The notes under the pieces were generated by a model that saw only the letters and a program-made list of their open reading frames with translations, was not told where the DNA came from and did no database searches. Positions 17,796 to 22,745 of a stretch of DNA of 64,000 nucleotides are shown here, piece after piece. This DNA is from Candidatus Marinacidobacterium sp. GTDB taxonomy: Bacteria; Acidobacteriota; Vicinamibacteria; Marinacidobacterales; Marinacidobacteraceae. The stretch is from contig OZ242011.1 in the NCBI GenBank assembly GCA_965204755.1, positions 320,001 through 384,000 on the forward strand. The letters are read 5' to 3'. A program made the translations under genes and the position numbers. Each line of letters begins with the position of its first letter. The first letter of the stretch is position 1.

Positions 17796-19994
17796 TCACC
17801 GCAGGACGAGGAACAGGTTCGAGTAGTCGTCCGTCCAGCGGTAGGCCTCTCCCGGCTCGGCGGCCTCCCCGGAAAACGGCCGGGCGCGGGAGAGGACGCT
17901 CGGGTCGGTGACGAAGTCGGAAGACCAGGTGATGAGCGCCCAGGTGGTCTCGTAGCGGTAGGCCTCCGGGTCCGGCTCGGTCTCGGTGAGCAGGGAGATG
18001 GCGCCGAGCGCGAGCGCCTGCGCCCGGATTACCGGCGCCAGGTCCACATGGCGGTTGGAGATGTGGGCGGCGATCACGCCGCCGGGGGCCAGCCGCCGCC
18101 GGTAGAGGTCGAACGCCTCGGCGGTGAGCAGGTGGACCGGGACGGCGTCCCCGGTGAAGGCGTCGAGGACGAGGACATCCCAGGGCGCCTCCCCGGCGGC
18201 TTCCTCCCGCTCGAGGCTGAGCCGCCCGTCGCCGAGGACGACCTCGACTTCCCCGGCGGCGTCGTCCAGATAGGTGAAGTAGCGGCGGGCCACCCGTTCG
18301 ACCTGCGGGTCGAGTTCGTAGAAGCGGAACCGGTCGCCGCTCCGGGAGCGCGCCGCCAGCGAACCGGCGCCGAGCCCCAGGATCCCCACCGAGAGCGGCT
18401 GCCCGGCGCGCCGCTTCGGGTGGCGGTCGAGCGCCGTCTTCACCCCGGTGCCCTCGTAGTAGTAGAGCATCGGCTCCCGACGGCGCCCCGGCGCGAGGCG
18501 CTGCGACCCGTGGCCGATCCCGCCGTGCCAGAGGTCGCGCCGCCACTCCGGGGTGTCCGGCGAGTCTTCCATCACCCGCACCGCGCCGTAGAAGTTCCGG
18601 CTGGCGTGGAGCGGCCTCCGGTGCTCCAGCCAGGTTACGGCGAGCGCCAGCCCGGCCACCCCGGCGAGGGCGCCCCGGAGCGCGGCGCGGGGCAGGCTCC
18701 GGGAGGTCGAGGCCGCGCCGGCGAACGGGGCGGCGGCGCCGAGGACCAGGGCGAGCGGGTATTCCCAGGTGTTCGGGAACAGGAGCGGGCTCAGCAGCGA
18801 GGCGGAGAGCCCGCCCGCCGCGCCCCCGGCGGTGAGGGAGAGGTAGAAGCCGGTCAGCCGGGCCGGCGCCGGGCGCCGCCGGGCGATCTCGGCGTGGGCG
18901 GTCCAGCCGGCGGCGAACAGGAAGGCGAGGCCGGCGGCGGCGTGCGAGAGGAGCGGCCGGTCGAGCCCGGTGGTGATGTCCGCGAGCCAGACCAGCAGGC
19001 AGGCGGCGGCGAGCAGGAAGACCGCCGGGGTCAGCGCGCGCCGCGGGAAGCGGTCCGGCGCGCCGAAGGCGAGGACGAAGGTGACCAGGTACACCGCGAG
19101 CGGGGCGATCCAGAGGAACGGCGCGGCGGCCACATCCCGGGTCAGATGGGTGGTTACGGAGACCAGGGCGAAGGACGCCGCGGCCGCGAGGAGGGCGGGC
19201 GCGAGGCGGGCGGCGAGGCGGGGCCGGGCCGGGGGCGGCGGGTCGGCGGCGGGGTCGGCGGGCGGGGGCGGTGTTCCGGCGGCTGGGTCTGGGGCCGGGG
19301 GCGGCGAGTCGGCGGCGGCCGTCGGTGGCGTTCCGGCGGCCGGGGCGGCGGCCGGGGGCGGCGGGTCGGCGGCGCGGCGGGTGAGCAGCGCGCCGGCGCC
19401 GACGGTGGCCGCGCCGAGGAGGGCGAATCCGGCCGTCCACCAGCCGGCCTGGGCGGCGACGCCGAGGAACGGCTCCACCGCGACCGGGTAGAGCAGGAGG
19501 CCGAGGAGCGAACCGGTGTTCGAGACCGCGAAGAACCGGTAGGGCGAACCGGAGGTCCCCTTGCGTCCGCCGCCCCCGGCCAGCCAGGCGGAGACCAGCG
19601 GGGTGGTCGCCGCGCCGAGGACGAAGGGCAACCCCGGCCCGGCGAGCAGGGTGAGCAGGATCCGCGGCCCCGGCGCCTCGCCGCCCGCCGGCGCCCACCC
19701 GGCGGCCGGCAGCGGGGGGAGGAAGAACAGGAGGGCGGCGACGACGAGCGCGGCGTGGACGGCCACCTGGCGGCGCCGCGGGACGCGCGTGGCGAGCAGG
19801 TGCGCGTAGAGGTAGCCGCCGAGCAGGGCGGTCTGGAAGAAGAACAGCGCCACCGCCCAGACCATCGGCGCCCCGCCGTACCAGGGCAGCAGCGCCCGGG
19901 CGGCGAGCGGCTGCACGGAGAAGAGCAGGAACGCCCCGAGGAAGATCGCCCCCCCGGCCAGCCACCGCGCCCCCCGGAGGGGGTCGATCCTCAA
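17796..19994 (-). CDS. Fused membrane protein/spermidine synthase-like SAM-binding protein (5' end uncertain, open into the repeat array)
   Basis: FLGAFLLFSVQP...FFQTALLGGYLYAH, PYRFFAVSNTGS, LGLGAGSL, YELDPQV, GDGR, VLDAFTGDAVPVHLLT, HISNR, WTDDYSNL. The coordinate given is the last in-frame TTG before the conserved body. Confidence 0.88.
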   Translation of the reverse strand: MRIDPLRGARWLAGGAIFLGAFLLFSVQPLAARALLPWYGGAPMVWAVALFFFQTALLGGYLYAHLLATRVPRRRQVAVHAALVVAALLFFLPPLPAAGWAPAGGEAPGPRILLTLLAGPGLPFVLGAATTPLVSAWLAGGGGRKGTSGSPYRFFAVSNTGSLLGLLLYPVAVEPFLGVAAQAGWWTAGFALLGAATVGAGALLTRRAADPPPPAAAPAAGTPPTAAADSPPPAPDPAAGTPPPPADPAADPPPPARPRLAARLAPALLAAAASFALVSVTTHLTRDVAAAPFLWIAPLAVYLVTFVLAFGAPDRFPRRALTPAVFLLAAACLLVWLADITTGLDRPLLSHAAAGLAFLFAAGWTAHAEIARRRPAPARLTGFYLSLTAGGAAGGLSASLLSPLLFPNTWEYPLALVLGAAAPFAGAASTSRSLPRAALRGALAGVAGLALAVTWLEHRRPLHASRNFYGAVRVMEDSPDTPEWRRDLWHGGIGHGSQRLAPGRRREPMLYYYEGTGVKTALDRHPKRRAGQPLSVGILGLGAGSLAARSRSGDRFRFYELDPQVERVARRYFTYLDDAAGEVEVVLGDGRLSLEREEAAGEAPWDVLVLDAFTGDAVPVHLLTAEAFDLYRRRLAPGGVIAAHISNRHVDLAPVIRAQALALGAISLLTETEPDPEAYRYETTWALITWSSDFVTDPSVLSRARPFSGEAAEPGEAYRWTDDYSNLFLVLR

Positions 19995-21757
19995 AGCGCC
20001 GATCCGCAAGCGCCCGCTCCGAAGGGGGTCGATCCGCAAGGGGCTCGATCCGTGGGGTGTCGATCCACGAGGGGGTCGATCCGTAGGGGCTCGACCCACA
20101 TGGGGGTCGATCCAGAAGGGGGTCGATCCGTCGGGGGTCGATCCGCAATGGCTCGATCCGTCGGGGGTCGATCCGCAAGGGCTCGATCCGTCGGGGGTCG
20201 ATCCGCAAGGGCTCGATCCGTCGGGGGTCGATCCGTAGGGTTCTCGATCCGTAGGGGTTCGATCCACAAGGGGGTCGATCCAGAAGGGGCTCGATCCGAA
20301 GGGCTCTCGATCCGTAGGGGCTCGACCCAGAAGGGGGTCGATCCGAGGGGGCTCGATCCGAAGGGGGTCGATCCGAGGGGGCTCGATCCGAAGGGGCTCG
20401 ATCCGAAGGGGCTCGATCCGAAGGGGCTCGATCCGAAGGGGCTCGATCCGTAGGGGGCTCGATCCGTAGGGGGCTCGATCCGAAGGGGCTCGATCCGTAG
20501 GGGGCTCGATCCGAAGGGGGTCGATCCGCAGGGGTCGCGATCGGCAGGGTCTCGACCCGTCGAGGCTCGATCCGCAGGGGGTCGATCCGCAAGGGTCGCG
20601 ATCCGCAAGGGGCTCGATCCGCAGAGGTCTCGATCCGAAGGGGGTCGATCCGCAAGGGTCGCGGTCCACAAGGGGCTCGATCCGCGGGGGGTCGAACGGC
20701 AAGGGGCTCGATCCGCAGGGGGCTCGATCCGAAGGGGCTCGATCCGTCGGGGGTCGATCCGTCGAGGGTCGATCCGTCGAGGGTCGATCCGTAGGGTTCT
20801 CGATCCGTAGGGGCTCGATCCACGGGGGGCTCGATCCACAAGGGGGTCGATCCGTAGGGGCTCGATCCGTAGGGGCTCGATCCGTAGGGGCTCGATCCGT
20901 AGGGGCTCGATCCGTAGGGGCTCGATCCGTAGGGGTCTCGATCCGAAGGGGGTCGATCCGCATGGGTCGCGATCCGCAGGGTCTCGATCGGTAGGGTCTC
21001 GATCGGCAGGGTCTCGATCGGCAGGGTCTCGATCGGCAGGGTCTCGATCCGTGGAGGCTCGATCCGCAGGGGGTCGATCCGCATGGGTCGCGATCCGCAA
21101 GGGGCTCGATGTGTGGAGGCTCGATCCGCAGAGGTCTCGATCCGAAGAGTGTCGATCCGCAAGGGTCGCGGTCCACAAGGGGCTCGATCCGCGGGGAGTC
21201 GAACGGCAAGGGGCTCGATCCGCAGGGGGCTCGATCCGTAGAGGCTCGATCCGGAGGGGGTCGATCCGCCGAGTTTCGACCCGCAGGGGGCTCGATCCGT
21301 GGGGTGTCGATCCGAAGGGGGTCGATCCGAAGGGGGTCGATCCGAAGGGGGTCGATCCGCGGAGTCTCGACCAGCAAGGGGTTCGATCCGCCGGGGCTCG
21401 ATCCACTTGGGCCTCGATCCGCAGGGGTCTCGATCCGCAAGGGGGTCGATCCGCCGGGGTCTCGATCCGCAAGGGGCTCGATCCGCAAGGGGCTCGATCC
21501 GTGGGGGCTCGATCCGTCGGGGCTCGATCCACAGGGGCTCGATCCGCCGGGGCTCGATCCACGAGGGGGTCGATCCGAAAAGGCTCGATCCACGAGGGGG
21601 TCGATCCGCAGGGACTCGATCCGTAGGGGCTCGATCCAAGGGATCGATCCGACGAAACGCGACTCGTAAGGACTCGATCCGCAGGGGCTCGATCCGTAGG
21701 GGCTCGATCCAGAAGGGGGTCGATCCGAGGGGGCTCGATCGGCAGGGGGCCGATCCC
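19979..21757. repeat. Satellite-like tandem array of 14-16 bp units, consensus GGGG(C/G)TCGATCCG(T/A/C)A(G)
   Basis: Visible directly. About 115 units estimated from length divided by period, with an internal higher-order duplication (about 20563-20730 versus 21053-21238). Confidence 0.97.
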
Positions 21758-21867
21758 GCGCACCGCCGCTTCGGCGAACCGCCGCCGTCGGGCGGCGCTT
21801 TCCCGCAGGCCTTCCCGCGCGCCGCCGAGGGCGCTTCCGCTCATCCCTTCACGCTCCTCCCGCTGCG

Positions 21868-21874
21868 TAGAATA
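21868..21874. promoter_or_regulatory. Overlapping divergent -10 hexamers (TAGAAT on +, TATTCT on -)
   Basis: The only AT-rich patch between divergent ATGs at 21844 (-) and 21886 (+); GGAGGAG follows on the minus strand. Confidence 0.5.
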
Positions 21875-21885
21875 CGGGCCGCGCC

Positions 21886-22473
21886 ATGCCGAAACCCAAG
21901 TCCCGCCCCTCCCGTCCGCCCGCCGCTTCCGCCCCGCGTCCCGGCCCGAAACCGCCGGCGAAACGGCCCGCCGAGCCGACCGGCCGGGGGAGCGGCGCGC
22001 TGCTGCTCGTCGCCGGCCTCCTCGCCCTCGGCGGCGCGGTCTTCTTCATCTCCGCGTTCGAGGACGACACCACCGAGACCGCCTCCGCGATCTCGTACGA
22101 CACGCCGACAACGGAAGCGACCCAGGCGGCCGTCAAGACCTTCCCCTACTACGACAGCGCCGACGAAGCCAAGCCCTTCCCGGTGACGCTGCCCCCCTCG
22201 TCCTACAGCAACGAAACCCTGCAGCGCGCCTACGGCCTCGCCAAGGAGATCCCGGAAGTGCTCGCGCAACTCCCGTGTCTGTGCGGCTGCCACATGCAGG
22301 CGGAGGATCACGGCAGCCTGCTCGACTGCTATGTGGACGACCACGCCGCCACTTGAAGCACCTGTCTCCAGGAGGTCCTCCTGGCCAAGCAGATGCACGA
22401 CGACGGCGAAGAACCGGAAGCGATCCGCGAAGCGATCTACCGCCACGACTTCACGGACATCCCCCTCCGCTGA
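21886..22473 (+). CDS. PCYCGC-motif family membrane-anchored protein, predicted selenoprotein (Sec at TGA 22354-22356; 195 aa)
   Basis: TM anchor and LAQLPCLCGC...DHGSLLDCYVDDHAAT-TGA-STCLQEVLLAKQMHDDGEEPEAIREAI. Family-like sequence continues in frame after the TGA to a stop at 22471-22473. Confidence 0.82.
22368..22384 (+). promoter_or_regulatory. Bacterial SECIS-like hairpin
   Basis: CCAGGAG-GTC-CTCCTGG: perfect 7-bp stem, G-containing apical loop, starting 11 nt after the in-frame TGA. Confidence 0.75.
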
Positions 22474-22529
22474 CCTGACCGCGCCGAAGGGCGCCACCCC
22501 GCCGCCGACCGGCGGGTAACACCGACGGG

Positions 22530-22598
22530 TAACGACCGGCCGGCAACAACTGGCCGGCAACAACTGGCCGGCAACGACTGGCCGGTAACGACTGGCGG
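22530..22598. repeat. About five copies of a 14-bp tandem repeat (caacRactggccgg)
   Basis: Visible directly, at the left edge of the STAND island. Confidence 0.85.
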
Positions 22599-22745
22599 GC
22601 CGCCGCCCGCGGCGGCCGGGACGGGCAAGGCGGCCCCGCCCGATCGGGGCGGGATTCACGCCGACAGTCGAGCCGCCTCGAAGAGTCCTGCGGCCGACCG
22701 CGAGTGCCGGTCGTTATCGCAACTCGGCGCGTAGCGAAACCGGAC

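Follow-up and report, generated by a model that had tools for sequence, protein, structure and literature searches.

A species-specific, stop-free tandem array between a putative bidirectional promoter and a spermidine-synthase fusion gene: a possible translated leader in an acidobacterium

Background

How can a bacterial gene carry almost two kilobases of tandem repeats between its start signals and its conserved coding sequence? The question is raised by a gene for a fused MFS/spermidine synthase in Candidatus Marinacidobacterium sp., a sponge-associated acidobacterium. The window analysed is a stretch of 64,000 nucleotides (contig OZ242011.1, positions 320,001 to 384,000), and all coordinates below count from its first letter. 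A sequence-only reading of the locus had proposed that the array is a three-state frameshift switch, in which gain or loss of 14- or 16-nt units would turn the gene ON or OFF or provide it with a repeat-coded N-terminus. Here we examine this locus together with its counterparts in related species, with other arrays of the same genome and with contigs from other studies. The elements concerned are the following:

17796..19994, minus strand: body of the gene for the fused MFS/spermidine synthase, 732 aa counted from TTG 19994 (NCBIfam NF037959)
19991..19994, minus strand: TTGA, in which the leader stop TGA 19993-19991 overlaps the in-frame body codon TTG 19994-19992 (-4 stop/start overlap)
20007..20020, minus strand: GGAG (20020-20017), followed after 7 nt by TTG 20009-20007 of the body frame, a candidate independent start
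19974..21756, minus strand: tandem array that comprises about 115 units of 15/16 nt
19991..21844, minus strand: leader ORF, 617 codons, from ATG 21844 to TGA 19993-19991
21854..21861, minus strand: Shine-Dalgarno-like GGGAGGAG, 9 nt before ATG 21844, read directly from the sequence
21868..21874, no strand assigned: symmetric, putatively bidirectional -10 element TATTCTA within the conserved pattern CAT-N9-13-TAT-NN-TA
21886..22473, plus strand: CYCXC-family selenoprotein gene, ATG 21886, TGA=Sec 22354-22356, stop 22471-22473

Results

Anatomy of the locus

TRF describes the array as a period of 15 with 116 copies and 77% matches, about 1.78 kb long. Cutting at GATCG yields 58 pieces of 15 nt, 32 of 16 nt, one of 13 nt and 12 double units (30-32 nt). 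Splitting more finely resolves 115 units, namely 67 of 15 nt, which are frame-neutral, 45 of 16 nt, which shift the frame, and one each of 14, 13 and 30 nt. Of the two unit lengths on which the proposed switch relied, 16 nt is common and 14 nt rare (1/115). The unit, GATCGA[G/C][C/A]CCC[T/G/C][A/G/T]CG, makes the sense strand of the enzyme gene C-rich (40% C, 28% G), and its variation is restricted to 4 positions, whatever the frame. Unit starts are spread over the three pentapeptide registers (43, 37 and 35 times), so that no single peptide repeat is preserved. Block duplications at shifts of 507 and 432 nt are visible inside the array. Its terminal units are the most degenerate; they contain the GGAG, TTG and TTGA motifs and abut the start codon of the enzyme. 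Around it, no flanking direct repeats, target-site duplications or terminal inverted repeats were seen.

Upstream of the array, minus-strand TATTCT (21874-21869) lies 24 nt before ATG 21844, and plus-strand TAGAAT (21868-21873) lies 12 nt before the divergent ATG 21886. The pattern CAT-N9-13-TATNNTA occurs in 25/25 loci examined, and the enzyme gene stands back to back with the CYCXC selenoprotein gene in all 25 related loci. This conservation, from which the -10 assignment is drawn, points to a promoter between the two genes; a sigma-70 scan requiring a -35 box found nothing. The earlier reading described TATTCT as a -10-like hexamer on the minus strand; it would be one half of a symmetric, bidirectional -10 element. 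A promoter and start downstream of the array would have told against the proposed switch: no promoter-like or -10-like site was found inside or after the array by promoter scan and sequence reading; the terminal units offer the candidate start GGAG-TTG 20009. The array is real and probably lies within the transcription unit, downstream of the only recognisable enzyme promoter and upstream of the conserved enzyme body, as had been claimed.

The divergent gene, syntenic with the enzyme in all 19 family loci, encodes a selenoprotein with the Sec context T-U-S-T-C and a Pfam PCYCGC match. Its score against NCBIfam NF041379 (62.8 bits) falls below the 90-bit cutoff because the query ended at the TGA; read-through of TGA as U adds 38 residues that match the sister species.

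The enzyme itself matches NCBIfam NF037959 at residues 388-651 (61.7 bits, cutoff 40), and no Pfam domain scored above threshold. Among 711 homologues, the distant ones (670-695 aa) have their first residue about 10 positions ahead of WLAGGAIFL, and in the six that were read (P0020, P0021, P0029, P0048, P0057, P0064; 670-694 aa) the N-terminus lies 4-20 residues ahead of the first transmembrane helix. A 732-aa form predicted from TTG 19994 fits this family N-terminus and leaves the array outside the conserved family length. In four close relatives (P0001, P0002, P0003, P0005) the gene calls start at the equivalent of TTG 20009, with MRIGALRID.... A search for homologues of at least 1282 residues returned none, and so no longer fused form, which is weak evidence.

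Reading frames and start signals

The array, TATTCT, GGAGGAG and ATG 21844 were all reproduced, as were the remaining sequence observations of the sequence-only reading. All three minus frames are free of stops between 21843 and 19993, against 21 stops on the plus strand. Arrays rebuilt by resampling unit columns had a mean of 3.5 stops and were stop-free in 2.4% of cases; random substitution of the consensus (n=2000) gave a mean of 20.8 stops and 0/2000 stop-free arrays. The span 21844-17796 measures 4049 nt, with remainder 2 modulo 3, and each frame has its own outcome:

frame 0: an extension of about 617 aa fused to the enzyme
frame 2 (as assembled): a stop at TTGA, on the body TTG
frame 1: an out-of-frame run, open from 21843 to 15597

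As assembled, the frame of ATG 21844 begins with 29 unique codons and continues through the array in all three pentapeptide registers (reading ...PIEPPRIDPL...). It runs for 1851 nt without a stop, which then falls exactly on the body TTG 19994; the next stop of this frame past 19991 is 837 nt further on, at 19156. The 617-aa product has no protein-database match, weak evidence for a low-complexity sequence. The body frame stays open between TGA 21851 and 17796, a stretch of 1350 codons from stop to stop that reaches 21848, and leaves the array as RIDPLRGARW. It contains the starts previously listed (GTG 21593, GTG 20099, TTG 19994) and 11 others. TTG 20009, inside the degenerate terminal units, is the sole one among the in-frame starts examined with GGAG 7 nt upstream; TTG 19994 is not preceded by a Shine-Dalgarno sequence. 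The gene need not be OFF as assembled, since both the TTGA overlap and GGAG-TTG 20009 offer a restart.

The same site in other genera and in a sister species

In most other genera the enzyme ATG/GTG follows the -10 element by 9-20 nt, and the divergent start codons are 3-60 nt apart. Among the genera compared, only this one has tandem repeats between the -10 element and the start. Orthologues lacking the MSGSALGG leader had been named as an outcome that would refute the earlier reading; orthologues in other genera have neither leader nor array, which tells against the leader as a conserved part of the protein. Seven loci (L015, L017, L032-L036) carry inserts of 100-250 nt, bearing terminal inverted repeats, between the -10 element and an unchanged body-proximal ATG, and thus show that the site tolerates a long leader without translation.

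The sister species (G001) has about 290 bp of repeats in the gap, compared with 1.78 kb here. Its -10 element is followed by 10 nt, ATG AGC and then 396 nt in frame, and its repeat periods (24, 15, 21 and 69) are all multiples of 3. Codon 68 of 133 is the last canonical start in frame, so that translation must include at least 65 codons, mostly repeat, ahead of the body. The repeat tract of this lineage differs in length between strains, and of seven proteins read (P0011, P0012, P0015-P0019; 794-901 aa), five reach the promoter-proximal leader region and two start within the repeats. A repeat-coded N-terminus thus exists in the sister species, in frame and at least partly translated.

Strain variation and assembly support

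Array length modulo 3 across strains had been put forward as a check of the switch. Our comparison used contigs, none of which spans the array and which leave rare variants beyond reach; among the well-supported differences in these contigs no frame-changing length polymorphism was found. Run X11 shows three such differences (-15, -15 and -60 nt), all frame-neutral, and leaves the TTGA site unchanged, with a contig covering 19730-20122 without gaps. Run X7 contains one frame-changing joint, in which 182 nt are skipped with 1 letter between; it comes from one contig, one side of which measures 40 nt, and is doubtful. Unit order is mostly kept across four studies, with many pieces at least 99% alike, which argues that the tract is not hypervariable. 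The region was found in none of the RNA runs.

The same contigs bear on the suggestion that a G-run sequencing error created the frame offset. Of the 1854 nt from 19991 to 21844, about 1592 (summed over the listed pieces) were matched without a frame-changing gap by pieces from four runs in four studies; about 262 nt, made up of homogeneous runs of units among which are two of 16 nt, lie outside these pieces. The +2 offset looks real, and a +/-1 assembly error could still reside in the 262 uncovered nucleotides.

A family of arrays with the same core

The 12-nt core GGATCGA[G/C][C/A]CCC builds at least seven arrays in the genome, including that of the enzyme gene, which is the only one made of tandem core-only units; the sister arrays have 28-33 nt per core. 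Outside the enzyme-gene array the core occurs 146 times in 26 clusters, against an average of 1.7 for shuffled 12-mers. A longer motif is found 105 times here, never in the sister species and at most twice in each of 29 other relatives (these include an unpublished genome, G033, with 1 match, on which the result does not depend). The enzyme-gene array (A0) and the five others tested (A1-A5) have no stops on the motif strand. Since A1-A5 are equally stop-free, this is a property of the repeat family rather than of the enzyme locus, and it does not support the proposed switch. In 5/5 arrays examined the downstream gene is encoded in the same orientation as the motif strand. Arrays A1 and A2 lie outside any ORF, upstream of the putative promoters of their genes, and about 110-250 nt separate A1, A3 and A4 from the starts of the genes below them. 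The -4 stop/start overlap was found only at the enzyme-gene array and was not seen at A2.

Discussion

The reading that we consider the most likely, at a probability of roughly 0.45, is that the array serves as a leader ORF translationally coupled to the enzyme. With the same tentative weight, we regard it as a species-specific stop-free minisatellite that has expanded within the short stretch separating a near-leaderless bidirectional promoter, conserved in the family, from the first transmembrane helix of the enzyme. Transcription would still begin at the old promoter (TATTCT 21874-21869), making the array the first 1.8 kb of the mRNA. Ribosomes would initiate at the Shine-Dalgarno-led ATG 21844, read through the array as an ORF of 617 codons whose peptide is not conserved, and terminate at TGA 19993-19991, on the body TTG. 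The repeat-free enzyme would then arise by termination-reinitiation at TTG 19994, the coupling being suggested by the TTGA overlap, or by independent initiation at GGAG-TTG 20009. A translatable leader may in addition shield the long C-rich RNA from premature termination. What weakens this reading is that TTG 19994 has no Shine-Dalgarno sequence and reinitiation would have to occur at a TTG after 617 codons; that stop-freeness is not specific to the locus; that inserts are tolerated at this site elsewhere; and that no leader protein appears in the database.

Several of these points favour an alternative that we consider unlikely, in which the array is a neutral or selfish satellite inserted passively into the 5' untranslated leader, or the gene possesses an unrecognised promoter within the terminal units, so that the ORF from ATG 21844 has no role and the enzyme starts by itself at GGAG-TTG 20009 or TTG 19994. 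Besides the inserts that keep a body-proximal ATG in other lineages, the equally stop-free arrays outside ORFs and the missing database match, it accounts for unit variation that ignores the frame, for the mixed registers without a conserved peptide and for the gene calls from TTG 20009 in the four close relatives. Long C-rich untranslated leaders are, however, prone to premature termination by Rho, which would be expected of this one at 1.8 kb, and a Shine-Dalgarno-led ATG 24 nt past a conserved -10 element would be expected to let ribosomes into the array. Also against passive insertion, the stop of the ATG frame lands exactly on TTG, and the tract of the sister species must be translated. 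That last point, with five of seven proteins of its lineage in frame from the promoter-proximal start region, speaks instead for a gene running from 21844 to 17796 and coding for about 1349 aa, of which 617 would form a proline-rich and disordered cytoplasmic extension; the +2 offset would then be a C-run assembly indel or the minority state. To join the two frames, one 1-nt change at any point of the 1.85 kb would suffice, the body frame is open for its full 1350 codons, and the uncovered 262 nt leave room for such a change. Yet we hold this to be less probable still: most of the tract is matched gap-free by contigs of four studies, the homologue search (weak evidence) returned no protein of such length, the close relatives are called from the TTG 20009 equivalent, and 45/115 units of 16 nt in mixed registers differ from the multiple-of-3 periods of the sister species.

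Least probable of these is the heritable switch, whereby gain or loss of 16-nt (or 13/14-nt) units would make the population alternate between frame 0 (fused), frame 2 (coupled or truncated) and frame 1 (out-of-frame read-through, OFF) and so phase-vary the enzyme. The three frames do have three distinct fates, 16-nt units are frequent, runs of identical units indicate active slippage, and all frames are stop-free, as a frame-changing tract would need. On the other hand, no evidence of actual switching was found: 3/3 well-supported strain differences are multiples of 15, the exception in X7 rests on one contig, unit order is largely kept, stop-freeness belongs to the family, and we see no reason for phase variation of this enzyme. 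Equally improbable is a scheme in which a young, species-specific satellite family settles 5' of genes in sense orientation, the 617 codons form a translated 'ribosome-delivery' leader in front of a formerly near-leaderless gene, the balance of 15- and 16-nt units toggles three enzyme states, and the sister species independently filled the same gap, a recurrent repeat hot spot, with an unrelated in-frame repeat. The three states would be an enzyme fused to a long disordered extension, a coupled and extension-free enzyme, and one silenced by out-of-frame read-through.

Comparison with known systems

Several known systems share features with this locus. MIRU-VNTR elements are dispersed in intergenic regions, often in tandem, with a frame open toward the adjacent gene; at start codons their internal ORF is coupled to the gene by a -4 nt overlap (PMC12548453, PMC3184786). 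They are defined by a unit of about 40-100 bp and by signs of transposition, with direct repeats at filled sites (PMC3184786). The 26 core clusters, the constant sense orientation (5/5) and the TTGA overlap at the body start resemble them; units of 15/16 nt, or 28-33 nt for each core of the sister arrays, are shorter, and three frames are open instead of one. Neither target-site duplications nor terminal inverted repeats were seen, the host is of another phylum, and the overlap was found only at the enzyme-gene array and not at A2, with A1, A3 and A4 at some distance (about 110-250 nt) from their genes. MIRU-VNTR tracts typically hold few copies, whereas about 115 are found here in one tract.

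In simple-sequence contingency loci, for instance of Haemophilus and Neisseria, a change in unit number can alter the frame (PMC2651432, PMC5084427); such tracts have uniform units of 1-9 nt and frequent frame-changing polymorphism (PMC2651432, PMC5084427). The tract here likewise lies between a start codon (ATG 21844) and a functional body (19994), but its main unit of 15 nt preserves the frame, a shift comes with the 16-nt variant alone, and the well-supported strain differences are neutral. Translational coupling through a stop and a start codon that overlap (ATGA, TGATG) has been described (PMC6728339, PMC12548453). The 4-nt overlap is alike, with the differences that the start is TTG instead of ATG, that the ORF upstream consists of a 617-codon repeat lacking a conserved product, and that coupling here is a prediction from sequence. 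Pseudo-symmetrical bidirectional bacterial promoters have one -10 region with a hexamer on both strands (PMC12825309, PMC10268837), as would TATTCT/TAGAAT, offset by 1 nt between divergent genes and recognised by its conservation at 25/25 loci. Staphylococcal SD-repeat proteins are in-frame coding minisatellites (PMC3324548); the sister-species tract, with periods in multiples of 3, strain-variable length and translation, is similar, in contrast to the enzyme-gene array, where 45/115 units are of 16 nt and no peptide register is kept.

Conclusions

The locus carries a warning for annotation, as one base decides whether gene calls return an enzyme of 732 aa, a fusion of 1349 aa or an artefact of 2000 aa. 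The species-specific array family calls for an explanation of its own, and its invariant GATCGA..CCC core could mark it for a DNA- or RNA-binding factor. If the leader-ORF reading is true, the array would represent a MIRU-like solution outside mycobacteria and on a far larger scale. A satellite could then sit at the start of a gene without silencing it, being translatable in all frames and ending on the start codon, and the locus would provide a testable case of near-leaderless genes gaining long translated leaders and new starts.

Anatomy of the array and its reading frames

The genome that holds the window is a single contig of 3.98 Mb with 72% G+C. Around the array, which separates a start-like ATG from the conserved part (the body, 19994 to 17796, minus strand) of a fused MFS/spermidine synthase gene, lie the following features:

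21874-21869, minus: TATTCT, read from the sequence
21861-21854, minus: GGGAGGAG, SD-like, before ATG 21844, read from the sequence
21844 to 19993-19991, minus: leader ORF, ATG to TGA, 617 codons
19974-21756, minus: tandem array (TRF: period 15, 116 copies, 77% matches)
21848 to 17796, minus: body frame, open by frame analysis
as far as 15597, minus: third frame, open by frame analysis
21886 to 22473, plus: CYCXC-family selenoprotein gene, starting with ATG (family match and TGA read-through)

Successive GATCG sites in the array are 15 nt (58 cases), 16 nt (32) or 13 nt (1) apart, besides 12 double units whose GATCG anchor has degenerated. A finer split yields 115 units totalling 1782 nt. Most measure 15 nt (67) or 16 nt (45), and lengths of 14, 13 and 30 nt occur once each. 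The unit is GATCGA[G/C][C/A]CCC[T/G/C][A/G/T]CG, with positions 1-6, 9-11 and 14-15 near-invariant and free variation at four positions. The array leader is 40% C and 28% G. Its three peptide registers account for 43, 37 and 35 units, and unit variation is blind to codon position.

The span 21844-17796 is 4049 nt, which leaves a remainder of 2 modulo 3. The frame of ATG 21844 runs for 1851 nt to its first stop, TGA 19993-19991, and the next stop lies 837 nt beyond. The body frame contains 14 starts, among them GTG 21593, GTG 20099 and TTG 19994, the last overlapped by the leader-ORF stop (TTGA, 19994-19991); TTG 20009 is the only in-frame start with an SD-like GGAG, 7 nt upstream. The three terminal units of the array, which are its most degenerate, hold GGAG (20020-20017), TTG 20009 and the TTGA, precisely what a restart of translation would require. 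All sequence statements of the sequence-only reading (signals, frames, span and in-frame GTG/TTG starts) could be reproduced.

Two simple roles for the array were discarded. A GATC sink of the Dam/SeqA type is ruled out, as the genome shows no avoidance of GATC (24976 observed vs 10247 expected), and so is helical phasing (15+16=31), since units of 15 nt and 16 nt follow no alternating order. Rfam models, SECIS included, gave zero matches over 19800-22700 at E up to 1, and no intrinsic terminator was found over 19800-22000.

An ordinary enzyme gene behind the array

The product from TTG 19994 has 732 aa and matches NCBIfam NF037959 (fused MFS/spermidine synthase) with 61.7 bits (cutoff 40); a protein search with the enzyme found 711 homologues. 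Distant homologues of 670-694 aa (P0020, P0021, P0029, P0048, P0057 and P0064) have 4-20 residues ahead of their first helix, WLAGGAIFL, so the conserved protein begins at the end of the array. Among relatives with 90-98% identity, the four protein sequences read out of P0001-P0008 (P0001, P0002, P0003 and P0005) are called from the equivalent of TTG 20009 (MRIGALRID...), and the called starts of P0009 and P0010 are equivalents of 19994/19997. The enzyme gene is an ordinary member of its family. No protein with a longer fused form (1282-3660 aa) appeared in the protein search, and the 617-aa leader ORF used as a protein query had zero matches, both being weak evidence. A metagenome scan for close relatives returned only relatives of 55-63% identity, none with an array. 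Within the enzyme, a proline/alanine-rich low-complexity linker (19180-19396, minus strand; TRF periods 33, 11 and 3) lies between the membrane halves, and its length and sequence vary among P0001-P0010 (702-736 aa).

A probable promoter shared with a divergent selenoprotein gene

In all 19 family loci fetched, the enzyme gene has the CYCXC-family gene as its divergent neighbour. In the window, the in-frame TGA of this neighbour (22354-22356) corresponds to U157 in the motif T-U-S-T-C, with 38 conserved residues beyond it; in the sister species G001 (locus L029), the orthologue has an equivalent TGA read-through. Between the two starts, CAT-N9-13-TAT-NN-TA is found in 25/25 loci, namely the window (21868-21874), the 19 family loci and 5 metagenome loci (L010-L028 and L032-L036 plus the window). 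This element reads as a -10 hexamer on either strand (TATCGT/TACGAT, TATCTT/TAAGAT; here TATTCT/TAGAAT). In most other genera, the enzyme ATG/GTG follows 9-20 nt past it and the neighbour's ATG about 10-13 nt from it, with the divergent start codons 3-60 nt apart.

From this conservation, the element would be a compact pseudo-symmetrical bidirectional promoter producing near-leaderless mRNAs. Since both start codons lie about 9-20 nt from the element in most loci, such an arrangement is suggested for the whole family. Promoters of this pseudo-symmetrical kind are known, as passages of PMC12825309 and PMC10268837 describe. TATTCT, noted as -10-like from the sequence alone, is real but makes up one half of a two-way element. 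A sigma-70 scan requiring a -35 found no promoter over 19800-22000. Among the 25 loci, L026 (G007:C158) carries two copies of the promoter element together with the opening codons of the enzyme gene, about 350 nt apart, suggesting that the divergent start region was duplicated locally.

The gap between promoter and start in relatives

At seven loci of other genera (L015, L017 and L032-L036, the last five near-identical to one another), an insert of 100-250 nt follows the -10, ahead of an ATG that keeps its place next to the body. These inserts are bounded by terminal inverted repeats, e.g. ..CCTGTGG....CCACAGG.., the L015 insert lying at about 620-860. The promoter-to-ATG gap is a recurrent insertion target, a hot spot.

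G001 presents another filling of the same gap: the element is followed by 10 nt, ATG AGC, and 396 nt that stay in frame as far as the body; about 290 bp of this is repetitive, with periods of 24, 15, 21 and 69. The last in-frame ATG/GTG/TTG of G001 is the 68th of 133 codons, so translation there must cover at least 65 codons ahead of the body, most of them repeat. Of seven proteins of this lineage (P0011, P0012 and P0015-P0019; 794-901 aa), five extend to the promoter-proximal leader region and two start within the repeats. As to orthologue N-termini, which the sequence-only reading had named as a check, distant homologues begin close to the first helix, and G001 keeps its repeats in frame. 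The G001 unit is unrelated to the array unit and local to its site (4/7 pattern matches in the tract, the other three scattered singles), so that two sister species have independently filled one gap with different repeats. The alignment of the two leaders is ambiguous: the G001 ATG pairs with AGG within GGAGGAG or, if a 14-nt insertion is allowed, with ATG 21844.

The frame offset in public sequencing runs

Parts of the region are contained in 19 runs from 7 studies, with sponge and marine metagenomes among them and no RNA run. We compared Logan contigs of four runs from four studies (X1, X3, X7 and X11). No contig crosses the whole array in these runs. About 1592 of the 1854 nt of 19991-21844 are covered without a frame-changing gap (summed over the listed contig pieces); the other 262 nt fall in runs of identical units, two 16-nt units among them. 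Relative to the window, X11 has deletions of 15 nt at 21228 and at 21306 and a 60-nt skip (20122 to 20183), every length difference being a multiple of 15. An X11 contig (19730-20122) crosses the array-body junction with 10 substitutions and no gap, and hence retains the TTGA and TTG 20009. The leader (21757-21885) shows one listed substitution across X3, X7 and X11, at 21800. A joint in X7 (182 nt skipped, 1 letter between) would change the frame but is doubtful, standing in a single contig with a 40-nt side. In X1, a joint from 19752 to 22014 (2261 nt skipped) was set aside because its side is only 20 nt, too short to count as reliable, and loose ends with extra letters near 21344-21522 are uninterpretable.

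Two blocks inside the window are duplicated, with shifts of 507 and 432 nt, each a multiple of 3, which is weak evidence as the chance probability is about 1 in 9. Together with the gap-free coverage, the frame-neutral differences of X11 and the lack of homologues of at least 1282 residues, these shifts indicate that the +2 offset is probably real, and not the product of sequencing error that had been cautioned against, with the 262 uncovered nt as the remaining margin. The contigs of X1, X3, X7 and X11 show no sign of frame switching; contigs cannot reveal rare variants.

A species-specific family of arrays

The tandem core-only layout is unique in the genome, with 44/44 matches inside the array. 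Among other species' genome contigs, tandem pairs of array units gave 9 single chance matches and no arrays. The 12-nt core GGATCGA[G/C][C/A]CCC has 146 copies outside the array in 26 clusters, against an average of 1.7 for shuffled 12-mers. In a 15-nt version, the motif has 105 copies in this genome, none in G001, and at most two in each of 29 other relatives; one of these, the unpublished G033, has 1 match, and species-specificity is independent of it.

Core-sharing arrays elsewhere on the contig G000:C1 (gene assignments for A2 and A4 from Pfam)
A1: 2587862-2589875; 58 cores, about 30 nt per core, 121-nt super-unit
A2: 2780786-2782382; 39 cores, ends 47 nt before the selB ATG
A3: 2161994-2162720
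A4: 1840215-1840521; period 33, upstream of a TP_methylase gene and divergent from an epimerase gene
A5: 755752-756265
A6: 245489-245757

In A1-A6, the spacers between cores measure 14-20 nt and recur in fixed cycles; a CRISPR-like reading is ruled out, as these 'spacers' return in fixed 4-unit cycles. In 5/5 arrays examined, the gene downstream points the same way as the C-rich motif strand, and the four arrays outside the window each lie 5' of that gene. Sequence richer in AT and resembling a promoter separates A1 from an ATPase gene (TTGACA and other motifs) and A2 from selB (TACAAT, 8 nt before the ATG); both arrays lie outside the ORFs of these genes.

The window's array (A0) and A1-A5 contain zero stops in all three motif-strand frames, A6 (245489-245757) being outside this test. 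Under column resampling, arrays average 3.5 stops and 2.4% have zero; under random substitution, the average is 20.8. Three-frame openness is beyond simple nulls, yet it is a family-wide property and no adaptation of this locus.

Other repeats were seen in the same genome. Intergenic short-motif arrays stand beside core-family arrays, with GAATTGTGTATAG about every 20 nt or GACACATG about every 12-20 nt (G000:C1 755990-756400 and 245540-245700; also 3494440, 2045492 and 1659915). Giant tandem arrays, presumably genes for giant repeat proteins, occupy 850503-958533 (108 kb) and 513168-538331 (25 kb), both with period 387 nt, and 3527219-3544943 (17.7 kb, period 351 nt).

Possible modes of expression

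Upstream of the array stands the sole recognisable promoter, with an SD-led ATG 24 nt further on, and in G001 the tract is translated; all this points to an array that is transcribed and entered by ribosomes. The most likely reading, to which we give a probability of about 0.45, is a leader ORF with coupled restart. Transcription from the upstream promoter would place the array within the mRNA; ribosomes would enter at ATG 21844 and, as assembled, halt at TGA 19993-19991, overlapping TTG 19994 as TTGA; the enzyme would then be restarted from the signals of the terminal units. Coupling at overlapping stop and start codons is presented as a general phenomenon in passages of PMC6728339. Leader translation might also shield the 1.8-kb C-rich leader against Rho-type termination. 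The leader peptide itself is unlikely to matter, given the even use of its registers and variation blind to codon position.

A passive, untranslated insertion, with the enzyme initiating independently at TTG 20009, is the foremost rival and itself unlikely. In its favour, that start, with its GGAG, is the one called in four close relatives; against it, an SD-led ATG stands 24 nt after the conserved -10. We consider it improbable that a real in-frame protein of 1349 aa is masked by an indel, for which the uncovered units would leave room; against it, as weak evidence, no homologue reaches 1282 residues. Slightly less probable still is the heritable three-state switch of the sequence-only reading, in which gain or loss of units turns the enzyme on or off. 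The X11 differences are all multiples of 15, and no frame-changing polymorphism is supported in the contigs compared.

Relation to known repeat systems

The array does not fit a classical contingency locus, as its main unit is frame-neutral and frame-changing polymorphism was not seen in the contigs compared. In its presumed working, it most resembles VNTRs of the MIRU type (mycobacterial interspersed repetitive units), from which it differs in unit size, in signs of transposition and in a host from another phylum. A literature search on fused MFS/spermidine synthases and on tandem repeats in sponge Acidobacteriota found no description of the array. Three aspects are unusual: the scale of the array, with about 115 units and 617 codons; a promoter-to-start gap filled independently in two sister species; and a species-specific, stop-free array family built on an invariant core.
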